Source: an uncultured virus (IMG/VR IMGVR_UViG_3300030107_004497) (lineage: Duplodnaviria; Heunggongvirae; Uroviricota; Caudoviricetes; Crassvirales). Taken from it: 64,000 bases of DNA. This document shows, piece by piece, positions 1 to 17,825 of the stretch (positions are counted from its first letter, which is position 1; each line of letters starts with the position of its first letter). The stretch lies in the IMG/VR virus record IMGVR_UViG_3300030107_004497; one strand, 5' to 3'. Under the pieces are notes generated by a model. It saw only the letters and a list, made by a program, of their open reading frames with translations, searched no databases and had not been told where the DNA came from. Position numbers and translations under genes: made by a program.

Positions 1-1607
1 AAATTTTGAAATTTAACTTTAAGCACTTTAACTTTTGTTGTTTTTGCTTCGTAGTCTCTATGTACCAATAATCCATGGTAACTAGCATCGTACCATTCAC
101 CACCTCCTTTGATATTGTACATTGTTGGTTCTTCAATTTTTCCATCTTGTCCTTTATACATTTTAGTTGGGTGTGCAACAATAAACGTTAACACATCATA
201 TTTTTTACAAAAAGTTTCAATTTTAGCTAAGTAATCCATTGTATAACGGTTTACATCATCTGACACTGCGTTTGTATCTCTAATCTTATTAAATGGATCA
301 ATAACTAAACATTTAATACCTTTACGTTTAACTAGCTCAGCGCCTTTACGTAATACAGATTCTAAGCTATATTTATCCATATCAATAAAGAAATAATTAT
401 CATTAACATGGTTTGCAACTTCTTTCCACTTATTACCTCCAATATCTCCTGGTGATGGCATATCCTGCCATGTTTTTCTCATTAATTTATGAGCATGAAG
501 ATATACTGGTTGATTCTCTGGGCTAGCATAAGCAGTTTTCCAGCCATATAGGTTATTATACCCCACAACCATTTGATCAACAAAATCAGACTTGCCGCTA
601 CTAGGAATCCCAGTGACAGTAATAAACTGACCAGTATATGTAGAAAATATTTTATCAAAGTTTTTAAGCCCGATTTGAAATCCAGGTTTGAAACCGTTTT
701 TAACAAAGTCTCTAAGTTCATCTTCAACGTCTTTTAAGGTTGATACATTTTCCAGTGGCACAGGTCTTGCGGTGTGTATAGCATTTTTAAGTGCATCAGC
801 ACCGTGTTCTAATAAGAAATCGTTTGCGTCTTTGTTACCATTAAAATCTATAAGATAACATACTTCTGCTCCTAAACGTCTAACAAGTTCTCGTTGTAAC
901 ATTTGACCTGGTTCATCTTGATCTACCGCTAGAATTATTCTTGTCTTGTCGTCAAAATAATCAATACAATTGTCTAAGTAATCTAAATTGTTATTATTTA
1001 ACGTAGCACCGTTGGGTACTGATACAGCGTTTGGTATTCCAGCTTCATGTAATGCTAAAACATCCATTTCACCTTCAACTATAACACAAGTATCATAACC
1101 CACGATACTATTAATATTGTAAAATACTTTTTCAGCACCTTTATAAAGTTTAAAGTTTTTTCTACCATCTCTATATTTTACATTGATCAACTGATCACCT
1201 ATAAAATAATTAAATTGAATAGTATTTTCTTTCTTTCCTGTTTGAGGCATAAACTCAGGGCCTTCAGTAACCTGAAGATCTCTAAGTGTTTGCTTTGATA
1301 TACCTCTTGTACCAAACCACGTTTCAACATTCGTACTTACCTCATTAAATTGTTCTGGTGTTTCAGGTCTTACATAAACTCTTTCACTAGAACCTTTACG
1401 TTGATAAGTGTGAAGTTGAAAAGTAGTATTACAGTTGTGACAGGTGCCGAGACCACGTTCCCAATCATAGCTAGCACATTGTGCTTTCTGATTTTTAGGT
1501 TTCCTAGTATGAGAACATAAAGGACAAACTCCTTGTGTAGCTTTCTCTTTTAGGTTGTATTGATTAAACTTGTCAATCAAGAATCCATTGATCTCCTCTG
1601 TATTCAT
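1..1607 (-). CDS. Primase-helicase, T7 gp4/Twinkle type (runs off left edge)
   Basis: Not in ORF track; translated by hand from ATG at 1607. Zn-binding CPLCSH...CHNC, TOPRIM IVEGEMD and AVDQDEPG, KDAND, Walker A TGIPSSGKS, Walker B LVIDPFN, VAHP. Confidence 0.93.
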   Translation of the reverse strand, partial: MNTEEINGFLIDKFNQYNLKEKATQGVCPLCSHTRKPKNQKAQCASYDWERGLGTCHNCNTTFQLHTYQRKGSSERVYVRPETPEQFNEVSTNVETWFGTRGISKQTLRDLQVTEGPEFMPQTGKKENTIQFNYFIGDQLINVKYRDGRKNFKLYKGAEKVFYNINSIVGYDTCVIVEGEMDVLALHEAGIPNAVSVPNGATLNNNNLDYLDNCIDYFDDKTRIILAVDQDEPGQMLQRELVRRLGAEVCYLIDFNGNKDANDFLLEHGADALKNAIHTARPVPLENVSTLKDVEDELRDFVKNGFKPGFQIGLKNFDKIFSTYTGQFITVTGIPSSGKSDFVDQMVVGYNNLYGWKTAYASPENQPVYLHAHKLMRKTWQDMPSPGDIGGNKWKEVANHVNDNYFFIDMDKYSLESVLRKGAELVKRKGIKCLVIDPFNKIRDTNAVSDDVNRYTMDYLAKIETFCKKYDVLTFIVAHPTKMYKGQDGKIEEPTMYNIKGGGEWYDASYHGLLVHRDYEAKTTKVKVLKVKFQN

Positions 1608-1916
1608 CTAAAATGGTAAATCTGGTTCAGCTGCAGCAGGAGCAGGCGCTGGAGCAGATTGATTATCTCTTGGAGCTGGATCAACATTCTGACCATTAGT
1701 CCAAACTACTTTTACATTACCAAGGTAAGTTTTAGGTGCTTTAGCATCTCTTTCTTCCTTAGTTTGTTCTACAACTACAGGGCCTTGATTACCGAATTGA
1801 TCTAATTCATCATTTAAAGTAATTGTAATTGGTAAATATTTACCTTTTTTACCTTCAAAGATTCTATCTTTAGGTATATTATTAAGGTTAATACTTGTTT
1901 TAATAATACTTGCCAT
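1608..1916 (-). CDS. Single-stranded DNA-binding protein (phage type)
   Basis: Small beta-rich protein with Pro/Ala linker and acidic C-terminal EPDLPF tail; adjacent to primase-helicase. Confidence 0.7.
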   Translation of the reverse strand: MASIIKTSINLNNIPKDRIFEGKKGKYLPITITLNDELDQFGNQGPVVVEQTKEERDAKAPKTYLGNVKVVWTNGQNVDPAPRDNQSAPAPAPAAAEPDLPF

Positions 1917-1918
1917 AA

Positions 1919-2074
1919 TTAATAATTATTTATTTGGTTAAACATTCTTTTTAATTGTTCTTTAGTAACATTAGTGTTTCTCCTAATATTATCTACAGCC
2001 TTTAAATGACTTTGGTTTTTGTAGAAATTATTAGTATTGGTTTTTACACCTGTTACATCGCATACTTTTTTCAT
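1919..2074 (-). CDS. Hypothetical protein, 51 aa (MKKVCDVTGVK...)
   Basis: Hand-translated; fills the gap between exonuclease and SSB in the same orientation. Confidence 0.6.
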   Translation of the reverse strand: MKKVCDVTGVKTNTNNFYKNQSHLKAVDNIRRNTNVTKEQLKRMFNQINNY

Positions 2075-2084
2075 AAAAATAGGT

Positions 2085-2858
2085 TTAAAGGGTTTTGCTT
2101 ATGAAGTATTGTTTAGGATCAAAATCCTTAGTTTTATAAAACAAGTCATAAGCTTCACTTGCTTTACTAACTTTTTCTTCTCCTTTTTCATAAAACTGTG
2201 GAGAACAATCGAACATACCAATTTGATGGGTGTTCTTATCAATAACTATAAATAACATCTCATATCCAAACAACTTACTATAAATATAAGCTTGTGAATC
2301 ATAGTTAAATTTAGACGCCGACCATTGAAACTTCTCAATATCAGCAGTTGTTTTTAAATCAATGACTAATTTTTCTTCATGGTTAACAATATCTGCTTTA
2401 CCTTTCCACTTGTTACCGAATAACTCTGTAACCATTGGAACTTCATATTCTACATATTCCGATACTTTATGTTTTACTTTTCGGAATTGTTCTCCTACTA
2501 TAAGATCTCTACATATGTCGTTGCTCATTACTTTCTCTCTCATTAATTCAATTGTATCTACTTCGTGTTGTAGTAGACATAGCTCACCACCTGCAACATC
2601 TTTATAGGCTTTAGTATTTCTAGTAGTTGATTTAACAACTTTGTATTTTTCTAGCTTGTCGGGTTCTAGAATACACGTGTGAAAATACCCACCAACTAAA
2701 AATGCTGGAGATGGTTTGCTTGGTTCGAAGGCTCTTAATGGATCTTTTAATAATCTACCAACGTGTGAGTTAGATAAAAACTGATTACCAAATTTACCAT
2801 AATAGTCTTCGTCGTTTTTAAGCCTTTGTAAGATCTGACTTTTCTTTTTTAAGATCAT
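2085..2858 (-). CDS. PD-(D/E)XK exonuclease (RecE/exonuclease VIII-like)
   Basis: LSNS, GGYFHTCILEP, KGKADIV...IDLKTT, YDSQAYIY motifs; next to ERF. Confidence 0.85.
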   Translation of the reverse strand: MILKKKSQILQRLKNDEDYYGKFGNQFLSNSHVGRLLKDPLRAFEPSKPSPAFLVGGYFHTCILEPDKLEKYKVVKSTTRNTKAYKDVAGGELCLLQHEVDTIELMREKVMSNDICRDLIVGEQFRKVKHKVSEYVEYEVPMVTELFGNKWKGKADIVNHEEKLVIDLKTTADIEKFQWSASKFNYDSQAYIYSKLFGYEMLFIVIDKNTHQIGMFDCSPQFYEKGEEKVSKASEAYDLFYKTKDFDPKQYFISKTL

Positions 2859-3396
2859 TTAATTCATTTGTTTGTTTAACTGTTAATTTATATTTTGTTT
2901 CAATAGCTTTAACTTCTCCACCTGCTAATACATATTCTCTAGCTTTTTGTAGTTGTTCAGCTGTAATTGTTGGTTTAGCTGCTTGCTTAATCTTATCAAT
3001 AGCTTTAGATGGTTTTTGAGCATCAGCATCTTCTGTGTCATCAATAAGCAATAGATTACCTAAGGCATATTTCTTACCGTAAGTTGACGCTGCACCGAAT
3101 TGCTGAGCAGTCTGCATGCCTTTTTGATTAAGGTCTACACCTACTAGAGCGGTCGCGTGTATAGCATTTTCGCCGTCTGATATTGTTGCTGTTGATTTCA
3201 TTGTTGGAACAGGGTCAGTTAATATTAATTCCTCATTAATTATAACTGTGACGCCATGCTCAATTAAGAAAGGCTTTATAGCCTCTAAGATGTCTTCTGA
3301 TTTTCGGAAGTGATACTTACCGAACGAATTATACGAAGACTTTTTCGCTTTTAGTTTAGTCTGTATGACTGCTAATTTTTGGTTTAATTCCTTCAT
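2818..3396 (-). CDS. erf: ERF-family ssDNA annealing protein (probable start MKELNQK at 3396)
   Basis: N..GKY.FR..EDIL, AQQFGAASTYGKKYAL, DDTEDAD signature. Confidence 0.9.
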   Translation of the reverse strand: MKELNQKLAVIQTKLKAKKSSYNSFGKYHFRKSEDILEAIKPFLIEHGVTVIINEELILTDPVPTMKSTATISDGENAIHATALVGVDLNQKGMQTAQQFGAASTYGKKYALGNLLLIDDTEDADAQKPSKAIDKIKQAAKPTITAEQLQKAREYVLAGGEVKAIETKYKLTVKQTNELNDLKKEKSDLTKA

Positions 3397-3420
3397 AATT
3401 TTGGTCTTTTGGTGTATATA

Positions 3421-3431
3421 TATAATTACAC
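3421..3431 (-). promoter_or_regulatory. Candidate middle/late promoter core GTGTAATTATA
   Basis: Intergenic, upstream of the recombination/replication block; similar cores at 12558, 48782 and 60726. Confidence 0.4.
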
Positions 3432-3458
3432 ATTTTTGTTTATATTTACACAAGTAAC

Positions 3459-4220
3459 TTACAGGTAGTCAATCACTTGCGAGTGGTCTACATTATCTAT
3501 TAATTTCTGTACAGCTTGCTTTTTTAATTGTGAAACTCTAACATAAGCGCCACTTCCTTCAATGTTTAAATAGCCTGCTATTTCTTTAGCAGAATGCTTA
3601 TCACAATCAAGTCCATAACTCAATCTTAATACATGAAATTCTTTATCTGTTAAATGTTGTTTTAACAAAGCTGTTAAATATATATTTAAGAATTCTTGAT
3701 TATATGGTTCTGATTTATCTTCAATTTGTAAAAATAAATCATCATCTTCTCTAGTTCCAGAATCAATACTTAAAAATATAGAATTAAAAAACATTGCAAC
3801 TGCTTTTTTATCTTTACCAAAGTTTTTACGTATACTATTTGTAACGTGTTCTGGTAATCTCATTTGTCCTCTATTAATGTCAATAGCTCTACGTATACCA
3901 CCTTTTATTCTTTTAGATAAAAATGATTTCATAGTTTTTTCTTTGTCTTCAGATTCTTCCATTTTTTCCCAATCAATACGATCAACTGCTTTTATTAAGT
4001 TTAAACTTCCCTCTTGAATTAAATCGTTTATACTCATCACGCCACAGGCTTGTTGAGATGTAGCAAATTTTCTAGCTATATTTTCTACTAATGGCATGAA
4101 TAAAGTTACTAATGTATCCCTATCATATAAAGAATAATGTTCTTTAATTTTAATTCGTTTAATTGTTTCTTCTAAATCTTTTTTATATCTAATGTAATTC
4201 TGTATATTATAACTTTTCAT
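3459..4220 (-). CDS. Phage-encoded sigma70-family RNA polymerase sigma factor
   Basis: Region 2 (PLVENIARKF, DLIQEGSLNLIKAVDR, IRRAI...MRLP) and region 4 HTH (LTDKEFHVLRLSYGL, KEIAGYL, RVSQLKKQAVQKL). Confidence 0.9.
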   Translation of the reverse strand: MKSYNIQNYIRYKKDLEETIKRIKIKEHYSLYDRDTLVTLFMPLVENIARKFATSQQACGVMSINDLIQEGSLNLIKAVDRIDWEKMEESEDKEKTMKSFLSKRIKGGIRRAIDINRGQMRLPEHVTNSIRKNFGKDKKAVAMFFNSIFLSIDSGTREDDDLFLQIEDKSEPYNQEFLNIYLTALLKQHLTDKEFHVLRLSYGLDCDKHSAKEIAGYLNIEGSGAYVRVSQLKKQAVQKLIDNVDHSQVIDYL

Positions 4221-4576
4221 TTATTTAATTTTTCGTTAATTCTTTCTTGTATTATCAATCTATCTTTGTATGTTGGTTGGTAATGATTCATCAACTCTTT
4301 TGGTACGTTATCCCAAGCTGAACTATAGTTTTGCACATTAAATCCTCTTTTTATACATTCTATATATAATTTCCAATATCTATTTTTAAGATATAATAAT
4401 TTGTTATAGAAGAACTTAACATGACCTGTACCTAGTTTAAATTCATCAGGTATTCCATTCATATTATACTTACCTTTAGCAATACAGTTTGGTATACGTT
4501 TTATTTCTCTATGTTCAGCTATTAAATGTTGATTAGTTAATTCAGCTGGTGGTATTCCCACGTTTATTCTAGTCAT
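4217..4576 (-). CDS. denV: Pyrimidine-dimer DNA glycosylase / endonuclease V (start MTRIN at 4576)
   Basis: MTRIN...L..QHL.AE.RE..R and F.LG.GHV.FFY.KL.YL match T4 DenV; ATGA overlap with upstream gene. Confidence 0.92.
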   Translation of the reverse strand: MTRINVGIPPAELTNQHLIAEHREIKRIPNCIAKGKYNMNGIPDEFKLGTGHVKFFYNKLLYLKNRYWKLYIECIKRGFNVQNYSSAWDNVPKELMNHYQPTYKDRLIIQERINEKLNK

Positions 4577-5190
4577 AATTGTTGGTTTAATAATTCTTTT
4601 TCTCGTTTTAAATCTGTACACATATTTCTATGTATAGTTCTTGTTGATACATTTAAATGTAATGCTAATCTTTTTATAGTTATCTTTCTACCACTATCAT
4701 TTACTGATAACATTAAATCATATATATCACTTTGTGTTACACTTTTAGATCTACCTATTAATTGTCCTACAATACGTAATTTTTCTTCTTTACACATTCT
4801 ATTAAATGGTTTAAATATAACTTTACGTAATTTATTCTTTGGCGGTTCATCTAAATCTAACATAGATACTTCATATACTATTTTACGTAATAATTCTGCA
4901 TGTATAACAAACGAAACAAAACCATTTGGTTTATGACATATAACTTCTGCTAATCTCATAAACTTATCTTGATCTAAATCTGGATTAAGATACCACAAAA
5001 CTAATAAATGCCACTTAAGTGATTTGTATGTAGTTATCTTAGCTGATGATCTAAATAGTTCATAACATTCATGCGTACCATTTAAATAAAACATATATAC
5101 TTCATTCTCTTGATCTGGTTTATCTGTTATTGGTAACCTACGATATATTATTCTATTATCATTTAAATATTTAAGGTTTCTATGTGACAT
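4573..5190 (-). CDS. DNA-binding protein with C-terminal HTH (possible replication initiator or regulator)
   Basis: KITIKRLALHLNVSTRTIHRNM helix-turn-helix; inverted repeat overlaps its start codon. Confidence 0.65.
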   Translation of the reverse strand: MSHRNLKYLNDNRIIYRRLPITDKPDQENEVYMFYLNGTHECYELFRSSAKITTYKSLKWHLLVLWYLNPDLDQDKFMRLAEVICHKPNGFVSFVIHAELLRKIVYEVSMLDLDEPPKNKLRKVIFKPFNRMCKEEKLRIVGQLIGRSKSVTQSDIYDLMLSVNDSGRKITIKRLALHLNVSTRTIHRNMCTDLKREKELLNQQL

Positions 5191-5228
5191 TAGCCTGTTA
5201 CTCTTTATCTTTAGGGGCTGTTGTCACA
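5183..5228. promoter_or_regulatory. Inverted-repeat operator-like site, copy 1
   Basis: TGTGACATTAGCC-N20-GGCTGTTGTCACA; left arm shared with 12488-12530. Confidence 0.65.
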
Positions 5229-5332
5229 GTCCCTTGTGGTTTTAATTTTGCAATAATTATTCTTGTTTCATTATCATTAGGATATTTTATTTCATTCCAT
5301 AATTTAATTTTTTCTATTAATTTATCATCCAT
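5198..5332 (-). CDS. Hypothetical protein, 44 aa (MDDKLIEK...)
   Basis: Hand-translated, operon-packed. Confidence 0.45.
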   Translation of the reverse strand: MDDKLIEKIKLWNEIKYPNDNETRIIIAKLKPQGTVTTAPKDKE

Positions 5333-5429
5333 TTTCTTTTATTACTTTAGTTATTAATTTTACTAATTTTTCCAAGGCTACAGCTACACGTTTAATATCT
5401 TTGTATAACTCTTGTTCATTTCTATTCAT
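5325..5429 (-). CDS. Hypothetical protein, 34 aa (MNRNEQELYKDIKR...)
   Basis: Hand-translated; overlaps neighbours by a few bases. Confidence 0.45.
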   Translation of the reverse strand: MNRNEQELYKDIKRVAVALEKLVKLITKVIKENG

Positions 5430-6261
5430 AATCTCTAATACATTTAAATAACGGATGTCTATAACTACCCGCTTTTGTTCGTTCAAAATACGTGAACGTC
5501 GCTGTTTTACCTACATAATCTTGCATAGCTTTAAAATTATTTTGTAAATATTTAAATTTATCCATAACTGGCATGCCAAACTCAACACCATTAGCATCAA
5601 CCGCTAAGAACTTTCCAATAGTGCCTATACGTTTACCTTTACCTTCAACCCAACCTGTAATAGTAGCTTCGGTATCATGAAAGTCTTTGAATTTACGTAA
5701 TGACCATGATCTACCACATTTATATACATCGTTAGTACGTAATATAGAACCTTCGTAACCTCCAGCTAAATAGCTTTCGTGAAAAGCTTTAGCATCAGAT
5801 TCATCAGCTAAATATACAGTATTAACAAGTTTTACACAGTAACTAGGTTTTAAGTTTTTATTAATAAAAGCTTTACGATTGTAAAAAGAAACAGATTCAT
5901 CAACAGCGTCATAACAATGAAACTGCACGTTATCGCGTGATTCTGCACGTGCCTCTACTGTTGGTTTTGTTTTTCTGACCATAGATATGATTTTTTCGAA
6001 ATTATCTTTGTAGTCATGATTATATAATTCACCGTCGAGTATAACATCAGGGTGTTTATCAAAGAACTTATATAAGTTTACAATAATATGCTCTATGTTT
6101 TGCCATACTTTACCTGTACGTGAATAAGCTGTAACTTTACCTGCATCATATTGTATAAGACAACGTACACCATCAAGCTTTGGTTGCATAAATATCTTTT
6201 CATTGTAGTTAATTGGTCTGTCGCTTACTGGATAAGCTAACATTGGTTTTTTTCTCATCAT
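5422..6261 (-). CDS. lig: ATP-dependent DNA ligase (probable start MMRKKPMLA at 6261)
   Basis: PMLA, QPKLDGVR (catalytic Lys), LDGELY, EGSILR, RKFKDF, C-terminal RHPLF. Confidence 0.93.
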   Translation of the reverse strand: MMRKKPMLAYPVSDRPINYNEKIFMQPKLDGVRCLIQYDAGKVTAYSRTGKVWQNIEHIIVNLYKFFDKHPDVILDGELYNHDYKDNFEKIISMVRKTKPTVEARAESRDNVQFHCYDAVDESVSFYNRKAFINKNLKPSYCVKLVNTVYLADESDAKAFHESYLAGGYEGSILRTNDVYKCGRSWSLRKFKDFHDTEATITGWVEGKGKRIGTIGKFLAVDANGVEFGMPVMDKFKYLQNNFKAMQDYVGKTATFTYFERTKAGSYRHPLFKCIRDYE

Positions 6262-6262
6262 A

Positions 6263-6574
6263 TTATTTGTATTTTTTAAGGATTTTATTAATTTCATCCA
6301 TGCGGTTTTTTATTATTGCACATTTTTCATACTCTTCATCTTCTTGATATAAGTTAAGTAATGTCATTAGTTTAGCTGCCTCACCTAAAGCATTGTATTC
6401 TTCTGATACTTCAAGATCTTGGTAAGCCGTTGACCAAGCTATGTCAGACTTGGCCACGTGATGAAACCAGTCTTCCATAGACTTAAGTTTAACCATACGG
6501 CTTACGATCTTGATAGCCAACGCATTAAGTTCAGCTTCATTCATCATACAATCGTTTTTTAACACGTGCATCAT
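6263..6574 (-). CDS. Hypothetical protein with C-terminal UVR-like motif
   Basis: EDEEYEKCAIIKNRM; start moved downstream because a promoter motif lies at 6616-6647. Confidence 0.6.
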   Translation of the reverse strand: MMHVLKNDCMMNEAELNALAIKIVSRMVKLKSMEDWFHHVAKSDIAWSTAYQDLEVSEEYNALGEAAKLMTLLNLYQEDEEYEKCAIIKNRMDEINKILKKYK

Positions 6575-6615
6575 ATCGAGAAGAGCTTTATTTGTTATTC
6601 GTTTTTTGTTATTAT

Positions 6616-6647
6616 TATTATCCTTAGTCATTTGTATTCTCTTTGTA
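6616..6647 (-). promoter_or_regulatory. Early promoter-like motif, copy 1
   Basis: TACAA-N4-AATACAA-N8-GGATAATA with exact spacing. Confidence 0.75.
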
Positions 6648-6980
6648 TTTATCAATTAGTTTTTGTGGTTCACCTACAAATATACATTCAAAGTCATCGC
6701 CATTACCCATACCTTCAAATATACTAATCCATGTGGTTTTACCTGGTGTTTGCCATATATAATATACGTATTCTAAATCGCCATGCCTAGTGTCTAGATA
6801 TTCTATTTCCCATCCCTCTACCTTCATTGAATCTAATAGTGATTCAGCTATTTCTACACCTAATCCTTCTGGATAGCCATCACTGTGGTTGTAGAACTGC
6901 GCGTGTATAGCATTTGGGTGTTCATTAAAGCTTACACCAGTTTCTCTTGTTGCAAATCTAATTTGTGCTCTTGTACTCAT
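6624..6980 (-). CDS. Conserved phage hypothetical protein
   Basis: MSTR...YNHSDGYPEGLG...HGDLEYVY, a motif pattern common in phage early proteins. Confidence 0.75.
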   Translation of the reverse strand: MSTRAQIRFATRETGVSFNEHPNAIHAQFYNHSDGYPEGLGVEIAESLLDSMKVEGWEIEYLDTRHGDLEYVYYIWQTPGKTTWISIFEGMGNGDDFECIFVGEPQKLIDKYKENTND

Positions 6981-7555
6981 ATATTTATTGTTTTATAAAA
7001 CATTACAAATACTTCTCTACCTTGTTTCCATGATTTGTTTGGGTATTTACTATGAAAGTAATTAGCAGGGTAAGATATTGCTCTGTTTTGGTTATATCCT
7101 ATTACACTATCAAGAGTCCACATATCTAAGTTTTCAGACTCTTTTAATATCATTCTATCAAATTCTTTATCAGTTATATTATCTGGTAATGATTTACCAT
7201 AAGTTTTGTGTCTCCATAAAGCTGTACCATGTAACTCATTTATTTTTCTTGGAGATATATATAATACTAAAGCTCTATCTGGTTGTTGACCTTCTATTTT
7301 TAGATCACTATGTATTCTCCAATTAGTATCTAATACATTATTTGAAACTCTAAAAAAACTAAGTATAGGTTCTACTATGTTACCTTCTAAAGTACTTAAA
7401 CTGCCACTCACATGATTAATAAATGGTTGGGTAGCTTGTTGTATATAAAAAGATTTACCTGGAGTTTTAAGCTCTTGATAATCTTGAGTTGATAAATCTT
7501 TTATTGTTTCATCTAATATATAATTAGGCAAGAAATCGTCTATAAAATATATCAT
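6977..7555 (-). CDS. 2OG-Fe(II) oxygenase-like protein
   Basis: IDDFLP, IHSD (HxD), GTALW, NRAISYPANYFHS, R..FVMF. Confidence 0.75.
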   Translation of the reverse strand: MIYFIDDFLPNYILDETIKDLSTQDYQELKTPGKSFYIQQATQPFINHVSGSLSTLEGNIVEPILSFFRVSNNVLDTNWRIHSDLKIEGQQPDRALVLYISPRKINELHGTALWRHKTYGKSLPDNITDKEFDRMILKESENLDMWTLDSVIGYNQNRAISYPANYFHSKYPNKSWKQGREVFVMFYKTINI

Positions 7556-7650
7556 TCTTCATCATCTTTAAATGTTGGTGCAAAATATGCTTCTAATACA
7601 CAAATAGTCATTAAAATTATATATAAAATTGCAAATAGTTTTATTGTCAT
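7552..7650 (-). CDS. Small membrane protein, 32 aa
   Basis: Hand-translated MTIKLFAILYIILMTICVLEAYFAPTFKDDEE. Confidence 0.5.
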   Translation of the reverse strand: MTIKLFAILYIILMTICVLEAYFAPTFKDDEE

Positions 7651-7652
7651 AA

Positions 7653-7904
7653 TTAATCTAATAAGTCCATATAGGCGTTAATATTATTTTTAGAAAACCA
7701 TCTTAAACCTTTGTGAAAGTCATCTAACATTTTATCATTTTGCATTCCCATATCAAAACACATTTGTGCTCCCGTAATAAAGTCATACATAGATAGTTCA
7801 ACAGCGGTTAATTCAACTTCTACTCCTGTAAAAGGATTTGATACAGTATCTCCTTCTTCATATAACGCGCCGTTAAACCAATCTGGTAATTTTTGTTTTT
7901 TCAT
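7653..7904 (-). CDS. Hypothetical protein
   Basis: ORF track; operon-packed. Confidence 0.75.
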   Translation of the reverse strand: MKKQKLPDWFNGALYEEGDTVSNPFTGVEVELTAVELSMYDFITGAQMCFDMGMQNDKMLDDFHKGLRWFSKNNINAYMDLLD

Positions 7905-8173
7905 AATTCTAATTTTTCATATTTATAATAATACTCTTGTACTGTTTGTATTATATGTCTACCTGTTGCAGTGTGAAAACCATAATTATGTGTATGCAAC
8001 AATGGTATTGGATCATTAAAGAATACTAATTTTAAAAAATCCTGAGCTTTATAATGACCAAACTTGTAGGCCGCATCATTACAAGCGGCAGCAATACAAT
8101 TAGGACAATGTCTTAGCTCTTCATCTGATCGCCAAGCCATATATTCTTTTACTTTCTTAGTTGTTAGTTTCAT
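7901..8173 (-). CDS. Hypothetical protein (probable start MKLTTKK)
   Basis: ORF track with adjusted start. Confidence 0.65.
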   Translation of the reverse strand: MKLTTKKVKEYMAWRSDEELRHCPNCIAAACNDAAYKFGHYKAQDFLKLVFFNDPIPLLHTHNYGFHTATGRHIIQTVQEYYYKYEKLEL

Positions 8174-8540
8174 TTGTTTCTTCTTCATCGGTTGGACATT
8201 CAGCTTCTTTAAATAAGTTAAGTACTTTGTCGACAATTTTCTCAGTTAATTCATAAGTCTGTTGAAACTCAAGGCTATTAGCATTAACTCTACCATCATA
8301 ATCTAACTCATATTCTATATGATAGTTATCAGTATCTTCAAAGTCAAAATCATTTACAGCATTCTCAACAGCATTATGAATATCATCTAGTTGAGATGGT
8401 GTTAACTCTGGTTTATTATAGTCATCTAATTGTTTTTGAGTTGACTTCAAATCGTTTTGATACGTGGCACTAAAGTCGTTGTGCTCTTTTATTGCTTTTT
8501 CTAAGCCAGCAATCTTTAGCTCTAAATCTTTTTGGTTCAT
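8157..8540 (-). CDS. Hypothetical acidic/coiled-coil protein
   Basis: ORF track; directly downstream of a promoter motif. Confidence 0.75.
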   Translation of the reverse strand: MNQKDLELKIAGLEKAIKEHNDFSATYQNDLKSTQKQLDDYNKPELTPSQLDDIHNAVENAVNDFDFEDTDNYHIEYELDYDGRVNANSLEFQQTYELTEKIVDKVLNLFKEAECPTDEEETNETNN

Positions 8541-8562
8541 ATTATTTAATTTTATTTGTTTA

Positions 8563-8594
8563 TATTATCCTTCTTTATTTGTATTTAATTTGTA
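8563..8594 (-). promoter_or_regulatory. Early promoter-like motif, copy 2
   Basis: Exact consensus spacing. Confidence 0.8.
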
Positions 8595-8597
8595 ATT

Positions 8598-8675
8598 GTA
8601 GCTAGTGAGGAATCGAACCTCATTGTTTTCAACTCGAGCGCAACCGAGTTTCCTGTATCTCCAGTACCTAGCTTC
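8598..8675 (-). ncRNA. tRNA-like RNA (non-canonical cloverleaf)
   Basis: AGCTAG/CTAGCT acceptor, CTG/CAG D-like arm, AACTCG/CGAGTT arm with 8-nt loop, T-arm TGAGG-TTCGATT-CCTCA; no encoded CCA. Confidence 0.65.
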
Positions 8676-8680
8676 CATAA

Positions 8681-8822
8681 AACGAGGTCGGGCAGGTGTG
8701 GTTCTACCGAGTTTCGGTAAGCCGAGTTTCGGTTTTTGCTTTATCCTGCCGTTCTGCCAAGTGAGTAAGATCACTATCTTATCATGTGTACACATCTCAC
8801 GCGCTACCACCCTCACCTCGTT
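8681..8822 (-). ncRNA. Multibranched structured RNA of unknown class
   Basis: Nested helices 8681-88/8815-22, 8691-96/8745-50, 8761-65/8796-800 plus four hairpins; GC-rich island in AT-rich DNA. Strand inferred from context. Confidence 0.6.
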
Positions 8823-8878
8823 ATTTATACCATATTCCGTACACTTTACACCCATGATGAGTTGTACATAGTAATTTC

Positions 8879-9025
8879 TTATCTTTTATTGGCTTTTCCT
8901 TTAGTAGGCTTTTGTCCCAATATTTTGGATTTTTGCTGTTTAGTTTTTTCTTTTTTGGCATATTCTTCTAAGTTTTTTTCTATATTATTATTATCTTTTA
9001 TAAAATATTCTATTATTCTTTTCAT
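8879..9025 (-). CDS. Basic hypothetical protein, 48 aa (MKRIIEYFIK...)
   Basis: Hand-translated; ATGA overlap with upstream gene. Confidence 0.55.
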   Translation of the reverse strand: MKRIIEYFIKDNNNIEKNLEEYAKKEKTKQQKSKILGQKPTKGKANKR

Positions 9026-9525
9026 GTTACATTATATCTATGTCCGTTAACAATTACTTTTACTTCTGGCTCTTCTTGCCAAACATGTAATTCTTTAGTT
9101 CGTTTTATCTCGTCTTCATGTTCCCACTTGGGTATAAACTCACCACTTGATAGTTTATTAGCATAACCTATGTAATAGTTTTTGAGACAAAAGCTTATTA
9201 AGTATTCCAATCTGTCTTGCTCATTAGGTATTAGTACACAGCTACGGCTTGTAAATTGAGTATATAATGGTCTACCCATACTATCTTTTCTACCTGAGTC
9301 AAAATACTCTGGTTCACCTTCACATCTTTTATTTAGTTGCCAACTCGGGCAATATCCACCTGCTTTAGTACGTCTTACATAACCACTAGCAAAACTAGCT
9401 ACATGTATTTCACCACCATATTGGTCTTTCACTGGTAACTTAAATTCACGCGTACCATTTTTCTTCTGTCTTTTAGTCGTAACTTCTTGGATATCAAGTA
9501 GTTGTAATGTTTCTTTTATATTCAT
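9022..9525 (-). CDS. Hypothetical protein
   Basis: ORF track. Confidence 0.75.
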   Translation of the reverse strand: MNIKETLQLLDIQEVTTKRQKKNGTREFKLPVKDQYGGEIHVASFASGYVRRTKAGGYCPSWQLNKRCEGEPEYFDSGRKDSMGRPLYTQFTSRSCVLIPNEQDRLEYLISFCLKNYYIGYANKLSSGEFIPKWEHEDEIKRTKELHVWQEEPEVKVIVNGHRYNVT

Positions 9526-9526
9526 A

Positions 9527-9718
9527 TTATTGTGCTATGTAAGTAAAACCTTTGTAATTGAACCAACTTGTAATATATGAGTTGCCTTCATTATCTACTT
9601 GACCAAATCTAGTGTCAGCAAGTTGACATATTGTATAAGGTTTATAAGTTATACCATTCAGTTGAATTTTTTGTAAGCCAGTAACTGTGTTTGCTTTTAA
9701 GAATTTAATTGTATTCAT
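9527..9718 (-). CDS. Hypothetical protein (probable start MNTIKF)
   Basis: ORF track; start adjusted to lie downstream of the promoter motif. Confidence 0.65.
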   Translation of the reverse strand: MNTIKFLKANTVTGLQKIQLNGITYKPYTICQLADTRFGQVDNEGNSYITSWFNYKGFTYIAQ

Positions 9719-9729
9719 ATTTTTATTTT

Positions 9730-9761
9730 TATTATCCATTAGTTATTGTATTTATTTTGTA
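9730..9761 (-). promoter_or_regulatory. Early promoter-like motif, copy 3
   Basis: Exact consensus spacing. Confidence 0.8.
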
Positions 9762-9762
9762 A

Positions 9763-9939
9763 TTAAGGCGTGATTATTTCTGGATTATCATGTACCATCC
9801 ACTCGCAATTAGCTAAATTATGACCAACACTAGTTAAAAACTCTTCTATTGATTCATAATCAGGATTCCAATTATCTTTACCTACTTCATATTGAAACAC
9901 TTTACCTGTTTCGAAATCTAATACTGTTATATATTTCAT
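9763..9939 (-). CDS. Hypothetical protein, 58 aa (MKYITVLDFETGKV...)
   Basis: Hand-translated. Confidence 0.65.
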   Translation of the reverse strand: MKYITVLDFETGKVFQYEVGKDNWNPDYESIEEFLTSVGHNLANCEWMVHDNPEIITP

Positions 9940-9954
9940 ATCTATTATTTACTA

Positions 9955-10164
9955 TTATCCTAACATTGTACCATAACCTTTACGACGAGTTAACTTAGCT
10001 ATGCGCGCAGCATCACTGCTTGACATAATCTGTATGGAATTTCCGGTTTTATGGTTTATAAGTGGAGCACAACCATATTGTTCGGTCGTGGAGCAGTTTA
10101 CACACACTTTGTAGCCAAGTTTAACTCGTTGCTTAGGTATTATATTTTTACATTTACATATCAT
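9955..10164 (-). CDS. C4 zinc-finger protein (DksA/TraR-finger-like)
   Basis: CKC..IP.QR...G...CVNC pattern. Confidence 0.6.
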   Translation of the reverse strand: MICKCKNIIPKQRVKLGYKVCVNCSTTEQYGCAPLINHKTGNSIQIMSSSDAARIAKLTRRKGYGTMLG

Positions 10165-10171
10165 TCGTATA

Positions 10172-10203
10172 TATTATCCATTAGTAATTGTATTTGTTTT
10201 GTA
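10172..10203 (-). promoter_or_regulatory. Early promoter-like motif, copy 4
   Basis: Exact consensus spacing. Confidence 0.8.
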
Positions 10204-10283
10204 TTACTCTTCTTCATATTCTTCACATAATTTACTTAATATCATTGCTGATATGTATATTAATACAAACCATTCACCCATAA

Positions 10284-10616
10284 TTATTCTTTTATTTCTA
10301 TTCTAAATGGACCAAGTTTACTAAAATACATATTATCTTTACTTTTTAATGTATCTATAGATGTTTTTCCATTTGGATAAGTTGTTATTACCACTCTATT
10401 TCTATCTATTTTGTCATATAACCATAAATTTAGTACATTATTTTCATTTATTTGAGTAAAAAATGATTTTTTATACTTATATTCTCTGATCAAGTGACCA
10501 GTTTTATAGTTCCATTCAAAAACTGTATTGCCTTTAATAGCAATTCTAGAAGTATCTTGCGCATTTGAGCACAAAATACTTGCTATCAATCCTATACTTA
10601 ATGTTATTTTCTTCAT
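10284..10616 (-). CDS. Secreted hypothetical protein
   Basis: Signal peptide MKKITLSIGLIASILCSNA-Q (Gln after cleavage is typical of Bacteroidota). Confidence 0.7.
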   Translation of the reverse strand: MKKITLSIGLIASILCSNAQDTSRIAIKGNTVFEWNYKTGHLIREYKYKKSFFTQINENNVLNLWLYDKIDRNRVVITTYPNGKTSIDTLKSKDNMYFSKLGPFRIEIKE

Positions 10617-10619
10617 AAT

Positions 10620-10826
10620 TTAGTCAATTTCATCACAATTCTCGCAATCAGGAGCATATTCTTGAGCAACTAACTCATAATATTCTTCTTCTGTTAAGTT
10701 TTCGTGTATTGCTTCTGTTTCTTCATAGTCATAATTACTTGAATAAGCTGGACAAGGTAAGTAATTAGTACTTGTACAACTTGTTAATCCGAGCGCTATT
10801 AACGCTATTCCTGCTGTTTTTTTCAT
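10620..10826 (-). CDS. Small lipoprotein
   Basis: MKK + hydrophobic stretch + LTSC lipobox; acidic mature part. Confidence 0.7.
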   Translation of the reverse strand: MKKTAGIALIALGLTSCTSTNYLPCPAYSSNYDYEETEAIHENLTEEEYYELVAQEYAPDCENCDEID

Positions 10827-10918
10827 AATTTTTTATTTAATTTAGTTAATATTCTGTTGTTCCGTTTTTTTCAGCTAATTCTTCTAGCCATTTATCAAAT
10901 TCTTCCATAATTTATTGT

Positions 10919-11191
10919 TTAATCTAATCCATCTCGGTGATTTCCTCTACTATCTGTAAAGCGAAGTCCACTCTTTTTCTCTAATTCTATCATATTAGCA
11001 ATAGCATTTGCCATTAAATCTTCTTCTGGTTCTACTTCATTTGACCATATTTCTTCAGCTTGTCTTTCAATATCATCTATTATATATGATTTGAAGAAAC
11101 CTAAGTGATGTTCTTGACCGAAACTATCTTCAACGTGAATACTATAATGAGTATTACCTTGATATTTATTTATACTGATTTTTCTAGGCAT
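10919..11191 (-). CDS. Hypothetical protein
   Basis: ORF track. Confidence 0.7.
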   Translation of the reverse strand: MPRKISINKYQGNTHYSIHVEDSFGQEHHLGFFKSYIIDDIERQAEEIWSNEVEPEEDLMANAIANMIELEKKSGLRFTDSRGNHRDGLD

Positions 11192-11335
11192 AATTTACTT
11201 GTTTAAATATCCACTCATAACATTCTGATTTACTTTTATGGCTGAATAGTATTTGTTGTGAGTGTGTCTGAAATACTATAAATAGTTTACCATTTTTTAA
11301 AAATTTTATCTTCATAATTTATTTGTTTACATAAT

Positions 11336-11367
11336 TATTATCCAATACTAGTTGTATTTAGTTTGTA
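11336..11367 (-). promoter_or_regulatory. Early promoter-like motif, copy 5
   Basis: Exact consensus spacing. Confidence 0.8.
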
Positions 11368-11496
11368 TTACTTTATAGTTAAAGTTATTAATTCAAATTC
11401 ATCATTAGTAATTAATCCACTTAATAAACCTAAGTATTCTGTACTAATATCTCTACCTGTTATTTTACTTTTTATCATCATAACTTTATATTTTTA

Positions 11497-11634
11497 GTTG
11501 TAGTGTGAGAATCGAACTCACATTAACCATTACTACATTTTGTCATTCGTATTATTTATACACATTAAATGTTACTCAACGCTGTGTTTATCGTGAATAC
11601 TAGAAGAGCTACAAATCCGCTAATATACACTACA
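11497..11634 (-). ncRNA. Second tRNA-like RNA (T-arm plus acceptor mimic)
   Basis: GTGAG-TTCGATT-CTCAC T-arm followed by ACTACA, which can pair with TGTAGT at 11532-37 or 11629-34. Confidence 0.5.
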
Positions 11635-11677
11635 TTGATTACAATTTCAAAGTAGTGATTGAACTTTTGCTTATTCA

Positions 11678-11920
11678 TTACACTAACTTTTTATCTCTCA
11701 ATACTACTGGAATATTGTTAGTTGCAGTGTAACTTTTGTATTTTTGAAAGCAAGCTAATTTACTTAATGTATCTTTCATAAGTGAATACACTTTGTCATG
11801 ATTATAAGTACAAGTTTTACCATTTTTAAAGTTAACTGTAATTACTGCATTTTTACCGATTAAAGATTTTCTTACTACGAATCTTTTACTTGTTAATTGA
11901 TTTTGATTTTTCTTTGACAT
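11678..11920 (-). CDS. Basic hypothetical protein, first gene of the left arm
   Basis: ORF track; downstream of a promoter motif. Confidence 0.75.
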   Translation of the reverse strand: MSKKNQNQLTSKRFVVRKSLIGKNAVITVNFKNGKTCTYNHDKVYSLMKDTLSKLACFQKYKSYTATNNIPVVLRDKKLV

Positions 11921-11959
11921 AATTTTGTTATTTAGTTATTAATTTATTTTAGTTATTAT

Positions 11960-11991
11960 TATTATCCATTATTAGTTGTATTTACATTGTA
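11960..11991 (-). promoter_or_regulatory. Early promoter-like motif, copy 6
   Basis: Exact consensus spacing. Confidence 0.8.
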
Positions 11992-12096
11992 TTAAAGTAA
12001 GTACTTTGTTTAGTTGTATTATGAGCTACCACTGCTACTCCGCGCACTCTCATTGCTCGCGACACAATTACTATTTATATTTAGTATTTACATTTA

Positions 12097-12128
12097 TATT
12101 ATCCAAATGATATTGTATTGCAATTGTA
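12097..12128 (-). promoter_or_regulatory. Early promoter-like motif, copy 7
   Basis: Exact consensus spacing. Confidence 0.8.
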
Positions 12129-12256
12129 TTAGTTGTTTATTAGTGTATACAATACAAATGTGAATAAACATGCATTAGTTATTAAATAAGTGTAGTTGAT
12201 AATTGTTTCGAAGTTTTTCATTTTATTATATTTTATATTGTTATTACTTACATTGT

Positions 12257-12288
12257 TATTATCCAAATTAGTTTGTATTATAATTGTG
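12257..12288 (-). promoter_or_regulatory. Early promoter-like motif, copy 8
   Basis: CACAA-N4-AATACAA-N8-GGATAATA (one mismatch). Confidence 0.75.
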
Positions 12289-12308
12289 AGTGCGAATGAC
12301 AGTGTAGA

Positions 12309-12340
12309 TACAGAATGAATACGCTCGAACGTGGATAATA
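12309..12340 (+). promoter_or_regulatory. Divergent (rightward) variant of the promoter motif, copy 9
   Basis: TACAG-AATG-AATACGC-TCGAACGT-GGATAATA; same spacing, three mismatches. Confidence 0.6.
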
Positions 12341-12425
12341 TGGATATAAAGAAAAACGGAAAACAAAACGACGGAAACGTGGACGAAGGAGGTGGGGCCC
12401 GTAAAACTTTTGCAATTCCCCAGGA

Positions 12426-12450
12426 GGGGGAGGGGTAGAGGGGAGGGGGG
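12426..12450 (+). other. G-quadruplex-forming tract
   Basis: G5-A-G4-TAGA-G4-A-G6, the only such tract noticed in the window. Confidence 0.8.
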
Positions 12451-12487
12451 CAACACGGTACCCCAAAATTTATAATATTTTTTTTTA

Positions 12488-16253: not shown

Positions 16254-17825
16254 ATGGAATACAATCAACCTAGCGAGATTGTCAAAGATGTGAACTTTGG
16301 CGATCAAGCTAATAAAAAAATTGTTGCTGGTGTAGAAAAGCTAGCAAAAGCAGTAAAATCAACCTTAGGAGCATCTGGAAAGTGCGTTATATACGAAGAC
16401 GCCAGAGGTCTCCCGGTCATAACAAAAGACGGGGTAACTGTAGCAGAATCAGTTGTCTTATTTGACCCGGTTGAAAATATAGGTGCTACTTTAATTAAAG
16501 AAGCTGCTAAAAATACAGTGAGAGAAGCGGGTGACGGTACTACTACAGCTACTGTCCTTGCTGAATCATTATTAAAAGAAGTTAATAATTACAATAAAGA
16601 TGTAACTATTAGAGAAGTAAAGAACGGTATTAAATCCGGACTTGAAAAAGTAAATGATTACTTAAATGAGGTTTCTGTCAAGATCGAGGGCGATATGCTG
16701 GAATCTGTTAGTTCAATTAGTTGTAATAATGATGAAGAGCTAGGAAAGATTATAGCAGAAGCTTATACTAAAGTAGGTAAAGATGGTGTGGTGTTAATGG
16801 AAGAGTCTCCAACTGAAGAGACATACGTCGAAGTTGTTGACGGCGTGCAGGTCGACTCAGGACTCACATCCCCACATTTTATTACTGATAAGGACAAGCA
16901 AATTTGTGAGCTTGAAAACCCATTAGTATTAGTGGTAACCTCAGAAATACCAAACATAAGGAAAATACAAAAAATACTAGAGTATGTTATAAAAAACAAA
17001 CGCTCTTTATTAATAGTGGCTCCTGTAGAACAACAGGTTAAAGCCGCTTTACTTATGAATAAGGTAAAAGGTAATATTAAAGTTAATATAATTGACTTAC
17101 CAGGCTTTGGTCCCACTAAACAAGATGTATGCGAAGATTTTGCGTTTTTAGTTGGAGCTAAGATAATTAACGAAGAACTTGGTGATGATCTTGATTTAAT
17201 AGATATTGATTGTTTAGGCGAGGCTTACACATCTATAACCGATGATAAGAACACTGTATTAACTATAGATACACCAGGAGAAGAACTTAAAGAAAGAGTT
17301 AAAAATATAAAAAAGCTTATTAAAAAAGAAGATAAAAATCCTTTTTTAAAGAAAAAGCACCAACAAAGATTAGCAATGTTGTCAGGTAGTGTAGGTATGG
17401 TAAAAGTAGGTGCTAATTCTAAAGTTGAGCTTAAAGAAAAGAAAGATAGAATAGAAGATGCTATTTATGCCACAAAAGCAGCTTTAAAAGAAGGGATTGT
17501 CCCTGGTGGTGGAGTTGCTCTTTTAAATGCATCTCAAAAAATTTCAACCGACTCCGTCGGTGAAGAGATACTACTTAGAGCTATAACAGCTCCTTTCCAT
17601 ACTATACTAGCAAACGCTGGTTTAGAACAAACAGCACCAAGACCTGGTAAAGGATTAGGTGTAGATGTTGTAACGGGAGAAGATGTTGATATGATTAAGT
17701 CTGGTATTATTGATCCAGTACTTGTAACTAAATCAGCGCTTAAAAATGCAGTAAGTGTTGTTTCAACTATAATATCTGCGGATTGTGTAATTTCAAATAT
17801 GAGAATGAATGAAAGCAATCAATAG
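16254..17825 (+). CDS. groEL: Chaperonin GroEL (Cpn60)
   Basis: TKDGVTVA, AGDGTTTATVLA, PGFG, KKDRIEDA, EGIVPGGG, GIIDP; no GGM tail. Confidence 0.97.
   Translation: MEYNQPSEIVKDVNFGDQANKKIVAGVEKLAKAVKSTLGASGKCVIYEDARGLPVITKDGVTVAESVVLFDPVENIGATLIKEAAKNTVREAGDGTTTATVLAESLLKEVNNYNKDVTIREVKNGIKSGLEKVNDYLNEVSVKIEGDMLESVSSISCNNDEELGKIIAEAYTKVGKDGVVLMEESPTEETYVEVVDGVQVDSGLTSPHFITDKDKQICELENPLVLVVTSEIPNIRKIQKILEYVIKNKRSLLIVAPVEQQVKAALLMNKVKGNIKVNIIDLPGFGPTKQDVCEDFAFLVGAKIINEELGDDLDLIDIDCLGEAYTSITDDKNTVLTIDTPGEELKERVKNIKKLIKKEDKNPFLKKKHQQRLAMLSGSVGMVKVGANSKVELKEKKDRIEDAIYATKAALKEGIVPGGGVALLNASQKISTDSVGEEILLRAITAPFHTILANAGLEQTAPRPGKGLGVDVVTGEDVDMIKSGIIDPVLVTKSALKNAVSVVSTIISADCVISNMRMNESNQ

Follow-up and report, generated by a model that had tools for sequence, protein, structure and literature searches.

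Processing signals with the shape of a tRNA are documented in plant mitochondria and in mammalian nuclear long noncoding RNAs. RNase P, RNase Z and the CCA-adding enzyme recognize a tRNA by its acceptor/T-arm part, and in the engineered tRNA scaffold a foreign RNA put in place of the anticodon arm is processed and protected by the cell. In YrlA the two ends form a Ro60-binding stem and the tRNA-like domain is permuted, and rsr is the usual neighbor. The RNAC and RNAD species of phage T4, which we take to be tRNA-like in shape, lie in the tRNA gene clusters of large phages (myo- and siphoviruses).

Plant-mitochondrial t-elements are non-canonical cloverleaves that were found through the motif GGTTCRANYCC, and their ends coincide with mRNA 5′ or 3′ ends, which are attributed to RNase P and RNase Z (PMC1920247). 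MALAT1 and MEN-beta carry tRNA-like tags at their 3′ ends, of the mascRNA type, and in these systems RNase P makes the 3′ end of the upstream RNA while the look-alike is released as a small RNA (PMC8457004, PMC11693755). T4 RNAC and RNAD are described as RNAs of the tRNA region whose role is unknown (PMC3014915), and YrlA, or bacterial Y RNA, as a noncoding RNA with a tRNA-like domain that occurs in bacteria and some phages (PMC4201824). The engineered tRNA scaffold was designed for recombinant RNA (PMC3401473, PMC3753655). A paper on Lak megaphages reports tRNAs that contain introns and goes no further on this point (PMC8346664), and a review of jumbo phages mentions the Ro60 partner RNA alone (PMC7824862). 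A full-text literature search, covering little of the subscription journals, found no description of phage elements of the kind reported here, and the family is apparently undescribed.

The element that we analyzed lies in a 64,000-nucleotide stretch of DNA (the window) from an uncultured virus of the Crassvirales (IMG/VR record IMGVR_UViG_3300030107_004497). ORFs in the window matched a large terminase, portal, virion proteins, a primase-helicase, Erf, an exonuclease, a ligase, GroEL and a sigma-like factor. By tblastn, the closest terminase was that of an uncultured podovirus record (62%), and identity to the terminases of Flavobacterium (Elemovirus), Cellulophaga, Tenacibaculum and Maribacter phages was 32-45%. 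No match to named phages was obtained by blastn with the element's locus, 20 kb of the window or a relative's array. The genes from about 1 to 12,300 lie on the minus strand, and the ORFs are readable as normal under translation table 11. A long tract that is C-rich on the minus strand and G-rich on the plus strand occupies ~12340-12470, where the leftward early genes and the rightward genes diverge; the sign of the GC skew flips at this tract, which may be a genome end or origin. The plus strand encodes a GroEL-like chaperonin at 16254-17825 and a MAM-domain protein at 62744-64000. The features of the locus are collected in Table 1.

Table 1. Coordinates of the tRNA look-alikes and of neighboring features in the window.
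Feature	Position	Strand	Details
tRNA look-alike	8598-8674	-	77 nt; or 8596-8675 with flanking G and AA
Acceptor 5′ strand AGCTAG	8668-8673	-	pairs with 8600-8605, 6 bp
D-like hairpin	8655-8667	-	GTA/TAC stem, 7-nt loop containing GG
Payload module at anticodon-arm position	8623-8654	-	AGGA, hairpin 8650-8631 (loop GTTGCGCT), then GAAAACAA
T arm TGAGG / TTCGATT / CCTCA	8606-8622	-	5-bp stem, loop TTCGATT
Acceptor 3′ strand CTAGCT	8600-8605	-	followed by A8599, C8598, A, A
Upstream structured RNA, second scaffold family	8679-8821	-	143 nt; 4-5 nt before the look-alike
TATAAATA motif just upstream of the 143-nt RNA	8822-8829	-	candidate promoter
Promoter-like motif of next gene	8563-8597	-	AATTACAAATTAAATACAA ... 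GGATAATA; abuts the element's 3′ end
Downstream ORF behind promoter motif	8157-8540	-	127 aa, no family match
Second, minimal look-alike	11495-11538	-	44 nt: 6-bp acceptor, 10-nt strap with TGG, T arm, tail ACTA
TATAAATA before minimal look-alike	11553-11560	-	
TATAAATA before third GC-rich stretch	12072-12079	-	
Conserved zinc-finger-like early protein	9955-10164	-	69 aa in the window (69-71 aa in relatives); four Cys
Sigma-like factor	3459-4220		

The minus-strand sequence quoted in the preliminary description is present as claimed, and its 6-bp acceptor, A.A first pair, perfect T arm and lack of CCA were confirmed. RNAfold returns the cloverleaf as the structure of lowest free energy, at -22.9 kcal/mol (z -2.05), and 6 of 200 shuffles are at least as stable. 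A8674 faces A8599 in the first pair, G8675-C8598 could close an eighth layer, and the tail reads ACAA. The proposed 8-nt anticodon loop stands if the hairpin at 8650-8631 is given a 6-bp stem, but becomes a 6-nt loop on 7 bp if G8644.U8637 closes; an 8-nt spacer (8630-8623) separates this hairpin from the T arm. The D stem had been placed at CTG/CAG, a register that had to be abandoned, as relatives back the GTA...TAC pairing (8667-8655) directly after the acceptor. Of the T-loop motif GGTTCRANYCC the window has one copy where 0.13 would be expected, and 11 of 100 shuffles also have one or more. The fold statistic and the motif count are each weak alone, and because the fold by itself could be due to chance, the case rests on homologues.

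We searched for these with an exact 20-mer spanning the T arm and acceptor, then with regular-expression and protein-anchored searches. The 20-mer was found in 16 IMG/VR loci and in one 63-kb phage-like contig of a MAG. Twenty distinct homologues of 52-121 nt were recovered, from uncultured phages of the Flavobacterium/Cellulophaga/Tenacibaculum podovirus group, and all of them have the acceptor, a GG-bearing GTA...TAC hairpin or strap directly after it, the T arm and a tail A-C-A/T-A. The acceptor reads AGCTAG/CTAGCT or AACTAG/CTAGTT, so that pair 3:70 is G-C in 15 homologues and A-T in 5, never mixed. Relatives keep the D-like stem or lengthen it (GTGA/TCAC, GTATT/AATAC). The consensus fold of the four closest sequences has 19 pairs, 3 of which show a compensatory change, one each in the acceptor, the D-like stem and the middle hairpin (the last T-A/A-T). 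Covariation in homologues, to which the preliminary description had looked for a decision, is therefore present, in this group as well as in the minimal subfamily described below; that neither T arm nor acceptor varies in the AGCTAG subfamily is in part a product of searching with exact patterns. The homologues have no common sequence in the interval from the D-like part to the T arm: some carry one or two hairpins there, and L002 has five bases and no arm at the anticodon position. Other subfamilies with different acceptors and T arms occur in the same loci, with elements of up to 278 nt, and there are several look-alike copies and subfamilies per genome. Based on these comparisons, the window element belongs to a large family in podoviruses of marine Flavobacteriia, whose conserved part is the top half of a tRNA (acceptor, T arm and GG unit) and in which the anticodon-arm position behaves as a free insertion site.

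The window has a second, minimal look-alike that is without both D stem and anticodon arm and lies 13 nt upstream of a small ORF. An unbiased sample of loci was anchored on the conserved zinc-finger-like early protein rather than on the element's own sequence; of the 244 relatives of this protein in IMG/VR, 80 loci were kept. The protein has the motif NHKTGN and a basic C-terminus, and is without a Pfam match. A covariance model of 17 minimal elements (R1) matched 47 times at E ≤ 0.01, each time on the gene strand; 40 of the 80 loci contain a match, and 16 of the 47 are locus sequences used in training. The minimal elements are 44-46 nt long, and the one in the window, itself a training sequence, scored 69.3 bits. 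Across 40 distinct minimal sequences, pairing holds in 98.9% of 435 cells and both partners vary in 10 of the 11 pairs, figures that have to be read with the selection of the training set (alignment A3) by a script requiring pairing, so that full pairing is partly forced, and with the fitting of the larger alignment (A4) to the model. On four of five measures none of 500 shuffles came up to the observed value, on the fifth 6 did, and slid controls were 19-63% paired. The T stem covaries freely in this subfamily, the GG is invariant, and in the tail A-C-(A/T)-A the third position alone varies.

On the payload-bearing window element, R1 aligned the T-arm half alone (15.7 bits, E 0.13), since the model cannot span the payload. 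We also ran R1 on five named phage records: the matches in phi40:1 are annotated true tRNAs, the match in phi19:3 is a true tRNA-Cys, and there was no match in MW202828.1 or in the Elemovirus record. A looser script found a 110-nt look-alike at MW202828.1:523-632. Two look-alikes are present in Tenacibaculum phage Gundel_1 (NC_062747.1), which is cultured and has Tenacibaculum sp. AHE14PA as host, at 787-846 and 68787-68898, and ARAGORN makes no call on any of the three. One of the Gundel_1 look-alikes falls after the terminal repeat (1-322) and before the first gene (1050), where the record has no annotation.

The preliminary description had considered a decoding role unlikely, and our results bear this out. 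ARAGORN found 0 tRNA genes in the window and Rfam nothing at gathering level, the best weak match being tRNA-Sec at 15 bits against a cut-off of 47; at permissive thresholds, Rfam gave noise or nothing for the element's locus and 16 relatives' loci. Neither program detected a tmRNA, with its tRNA-like ends around a tag frame, in the window or the relatives' loci scanned. Compared with the tRNA criterion of a 7-bp acceptor and a 5-bp T stem, the family has a 6-bp acceptor with an unselected N.A first pair, and a canonical T arm. This rejection by the detectors, the missing or replaced anticodon-arm position in relatives and the presence of the element's own arm in non-tRNA frames together mark it as a tRNA mimic that is unable to decode. 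In 25 relatives' loci ARAGORN called 10 true tRNAs and passed over the look-alikes. True tRNAs found in relatives' loci are Arg-TCT, Asp-GTC and Met-CAT, and the true tRNA copies listed end in A/G-C-A/T without CCA. In 1 of 16 loci (L003:1499-1571), ARAGORN called a homologue tRNA-Thr (CGT), using a register that disregards the pairing conserved in the family, which is likely a mis-annotation of a look-alike.

What occupies the anticodon-arm position proved to be portable. A search for the hairpin with loop GTTGCGCT and the GAAAAC that follows it located the module in 7 loci, in two of which (L137 and L141) it is inside ordinary non-tRNA helices. The loop motif T-A-R-A-C-G-T-T-T-T-C-A-C-G-A-G is repeated in members with differing acceptors and T arms, TARACGTTTTCACGAG is a recurrent payload loop, and GTAA-tetraloop hairpins occur both in tRNA frames and within the upstream scaffold RNA. 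Both scaffold types exchange inserts at fixed positions. At L137:1420-1540 a 26-nt payload unit that includes a GTAA tetraloop hairpin is duplicated in tandem, which shows that payloads can grow in place. Conserved and shuffled as they are, the payloads suggest that there may be a further function beyond processing. A preQ1-like or other riboswitch as the payload hairpin found no Rfam support, and a hammerhead-like core around CTGACGAG in some payloads was set aside by eye, its helix order being unfit for the hammerhead.

The look-alike was said to start about 5 nt after a 142-nt RNA; the short gap stands, at 4-5 nt, and the RNA measures 143 nt. It is closed by a stem of ACGAGGT (8821-8815) with ACCTCGT (8688-8682), followed by TTTTA, and folds at -44.3 kcal/mol (z -2.62). 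It has a conserved core, GCGTGAGATGTGTA...TCTTACTCACTTGG and also around GCGTGAGAYGTGT, with variable inserts, and its family is without an Rfam match. The frame closed by ACGAG...CTCGTTTT was seen in loci from L001 to L136 with inserts swapped between phages; 15 of 120 pattern loci have this same scaffold frame with different inserts, in tandem in L002, and some of these inserts double as payloads of tRNA look-alikes. Most relatives have their small-RNA arrays between the zinc-finger gene and the next ORF, while in the window these genes are direct neighbors and the array is found some 1.1 kb beyond them. Because the stop codon of the zinc-finger-like gene abuts the array in most relatives, its product is a candidate RNA-binding partner.

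In public RNA-library data, 14 runs had small shares of matching sequence, and the four runs examined, from four studies, hold assembled contigs of relatives with other inserts. Contig pieces cover 8583-8704 (X1), 8552-8706 (X3) and 8733-8813 (X4 and X13) and, as contigs, cannot show transcription, ends or strand; in X3 the look-alike is separated from the upstream RNA by 88 additional letters.

The element's 3′ end adjoins the next promoter-like motif, as had been reported, with AATACAA-N8-GGATAATA starting 10-12 nt on. Eight copies of this motif are present where 0.01 would be expected; they lie between 6616 and 12279, without exception on the minus strand, and each is ahead of an ORF. It is probably the promoter of the minus-strand genes from about 1 to 12,300, and the phage's sigma-like factor may take part in its reading. 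Most minimal look-alikes, in the window (11560-11587, minus strand) and in relatives, are closely preceded by a hairpin with a conserved loop of about 18 nt and a covarying stem, followed by TATAAATAAT-(A/G)-CGAATGA, which may serve as a promoter, as a regulator site or as a further RNA element. A third GC-rich stretch (12010-12079, minus strand), directly after TATAAATA and before a promoter motif, is possibly structured. Of 68 look-alikes, 66 lie at most 90 nt upstream of a start codon (48) or a promoter motif (18), and 2 are near neither; the start codon is 3-83 nt downstream, mostly 10-36 nt, and the promoter motif usually starts +19 or +25 nt after the look-alike. This statistic favors unit boundaries but is suggestive only, since packed genomes have short intergenic spacers and closeness is partly trivial.

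The phage elements therefore combine a non-decoding tRNA-like fold, with an acceptor and a canonical T arm, with a place at a gene or unit boundary on the gene strand, as found in t-elements and mascRNA. Like t-elements (PMC1920247), they have the T arm GGTTCRANYCC and an acceptor, do not decode, would lie within longer transcripts at gene boundaries, and would gain any CCA post-transcriptionally. Unlike t-elements, they come from a bacterial virus rather than an organelle and make up a sequence family in which some members are minimal (44 nt) and others bear payloads, and their processing is predicted. The likeness to mascRNA is that of a tRNA-like element directly 3′ of a structured noncoding RNA, with release of both products predicted for the phage version; mascRNA is eukaryotic and nuclear with an upstream triple helix (PMC8457004, PMC11693755), whereas the phage upstream RNA closes with a stem and a T-run and is often without a look-alike. 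T4 RNAC and RNAD resemble the family by description only, as small stable phage RNAs associated with tRNAs, and unlike their clusters the window is without a tRNA gene. In contrast to YrlA, the element has no Rfam match at gathering level and its acceptor is closed in the normal order; no match to Ro60/TROVE was found among the window ORFs scanned (27 against PHROGs, 31 against Pfam), the window covering part of the phage genome.

We suggest, with about an even chance of being right, that the non-decoding look-alike is a processing and stabilizing end-module, t-element- or mascRNA-like, that also serves as a scaffold for a hairpin payload. Such a role is favored because the conserved part, exactly the acceptor, T arm and GG unit, fits the tRNA enzymes, because the tail follows the same CCA-less logic as the true tRNAs of related phages, and because of the boundary positions. 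The element would be transcribed with the early minus-strand genes, directly after the 143-nt scaffold RNA, and would be recognized by the tRNA end-processing enzymes of the host. A cut by RNase P 5′ of the element would free the upstream RNA and give it a defined 3′ end, RNase Z or trimming after the discriminator would be followed by CCA addition, and the small-RNA unit would thereby be separated from the next transcription unit. What remains would be a compact, nuclease-resistant, tRNA-shaped RNA carrying the hairpin payload. The strand of all 47 model matches and the place of 66 of 68 elements before a start codon or promoter agree with this proposal. However, the 6-bp acceptor with its mismatch (11 stacked pairs against 12) might weaken recognition by tRNA enzymes, and the tRNA-Thr call at L003, in a different register, also counts against it. 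In 7 of 15 arrays the scaffold RNA has no look-alike behind it, so this RNA needs none for its 3′ end. Processing alone also leaves the conservation of payloads and their shuffling between frames unexplained.

Because the payloads are conserved and shuffled, scaffold and decoy readings have to be weighed, as well as a broader combinatorial one. A natural tRNA scaffold, in which the selected unit is the hairpin payload, as a binding site or decoy for an RNA-binding factor, and the top half just excises and protects it, is an alternative that we regard as possible but tentative. It overlaps the end-module reading, and the difference is what is selected. Modules that stay conserved as they move between tRNA frames and plain helices, a loop motif that recurs across different acceptors and T arms, GTAA-tetraloop hairpins in both scaffold types and inserts swapped at fixed sites all agree with it, as does the engineering precedent (PMC3401473, PMC3753655). 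That precedent is a laboratory design, of which the phage element, with a shorter acceptor and often no D stem, would be the natural counterpart. On the other hand, no payload partner is known, Rfam recognizes none of the modules, and payload-free versions are common and conserved (44-46 nt in 40 of 80 loci; L002), so the top half has a role of its own.

The combinatorial idea, which we put forward as speculation that is possible and still rather doubtful, is one of "RNA display". Early small-RNA arrays built on two scaffolds, the tRNA top half and the ACGAG...CTCGTTTT frame, would present a shuffled library of hairpins that are excised and protected by host enzymes and act as takeover or anti-defense decoys or sponges. 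Recombination would shuffle the hairpin modules into the scaffolds, and the tRNA frame would hijack the host's RNase P, RNase Z and CCA enzyme.

We consider it unlikely that the look-alike is a free decoy or competitive inhibitor of factors that read the acceptor/T-arm half or elbow of tRNA, candidates being a host defense toxin that acts on acceptor ends, or host RNase P or CCA enzyme during takeover. Look-alikes do occur in the early region, in Gundel_1 even before the first gene, with several copies and subfamilies per genome, and the conserved part is the top half; yet there is no candidate target, and tight, fixed spacing to promoters and start codons is unexpected for a free decoy. The preliminary description had proposed a decoy for tRNA-targeting defense nucleases, of which this acceptor/T-arm version is what survives: a decoy for anticodon-targeting nucleases is disfavored because the anticodon region, variable or absent in relatives, is the sole part that is not conserved.

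Quite unlikely, too, is a cis-acting element rather than a processed RNA, either a 5′-UTR structure that aids the next ORF or an insulator or terminator before a promoter. A start codon downstream in 48 of 68 elements, a promoter motif in 18, and the conserved hairpin with TATAAATA before most minimal elements fit such a role, but a plain hairpin would suffice for it, and the kept T loop, GG strap and discriminator-like tail point to tRNA enzymes; moreover, the window element precedes a promoter and not an ORF. That the family is a functionless decaying tRNA gene or recombination scar we regard as highly improbable. True tRNA-Arg, tRNA-Asp and tRNA-Met genes in the same region of related phages would be a plausible ancestor, but compensatory changes keep every helix, the GG and tail are invariant, and the element recurs in 40 of 80 loci, always on one strand.

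A working tRNA with an expanded anticodon loop, such as a quadruplet or frameshift-suppressor decoder, is barely credible: an 8-nt loop and the tRNA-Thr call on the L003 homologue can be cited for it, but the detectors are silent on the window element, the ORFs read normally under table 11, and the arm is absent in L002 and swapped in most relatives, and it is the portable hairpin, found outside tRNA frames, with a loop of 8 or 6 nt by pairing and never 7, that removes the decoding and frameshift-suppressor readings. Position 37 of a tRNA is a purine, and the element has a pyrimidine in the corresponding place. Further candidates were rejected. A His-type G-1:C73 identity fails as the -1 base is not conserved, and a protein-coding reading of the ORF at 8565-8855 fails as family lengths differ by non-multiples of 3, with several members closed in all six frames and no conserved reading frame. 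An attP copy of the 3′ half of a host tRNA was dismissed, the 20-mer being in no host tRNA gene among the genomes scanned; its single match in the genome collection is another phage-like contig, which argues against such a copy, and no integrase was found among the ORFs scanned (27 against PHROGs, 31 against Pfam).

Small RNAs associated with tRNAs, of the T4 RNAC and RNAD type, have been without a known role for decades. To these the family adds many diverged copies with clear covariation, a graded series from the bare 44-nt top half to frames with inserts, in elements of up to 278 nt, and a fixed placement with respect to promoters and start codons. For annotators it is a warning that tRNA finders miss these look-alikes or miscall them as tRNAs, as with the tRNA-Thr at L003. 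Relatives of the elements occur in Tenacibaculum phage Gundel_1, and because this phage is cultured, the hypothesis can be tested at the bench. Two testable questions are raised: whether bacterial viruses use the tRNA enzymes of their hosts to punctuate and stabilize their own RNAs, and whether the tRNA-scaffold trick is used in nature to present other RNA modules. If the "RNA display" proposal is true, these arrays would be an RNA-based counterpart of the gene cassettes that encode protein anti-defense functions.
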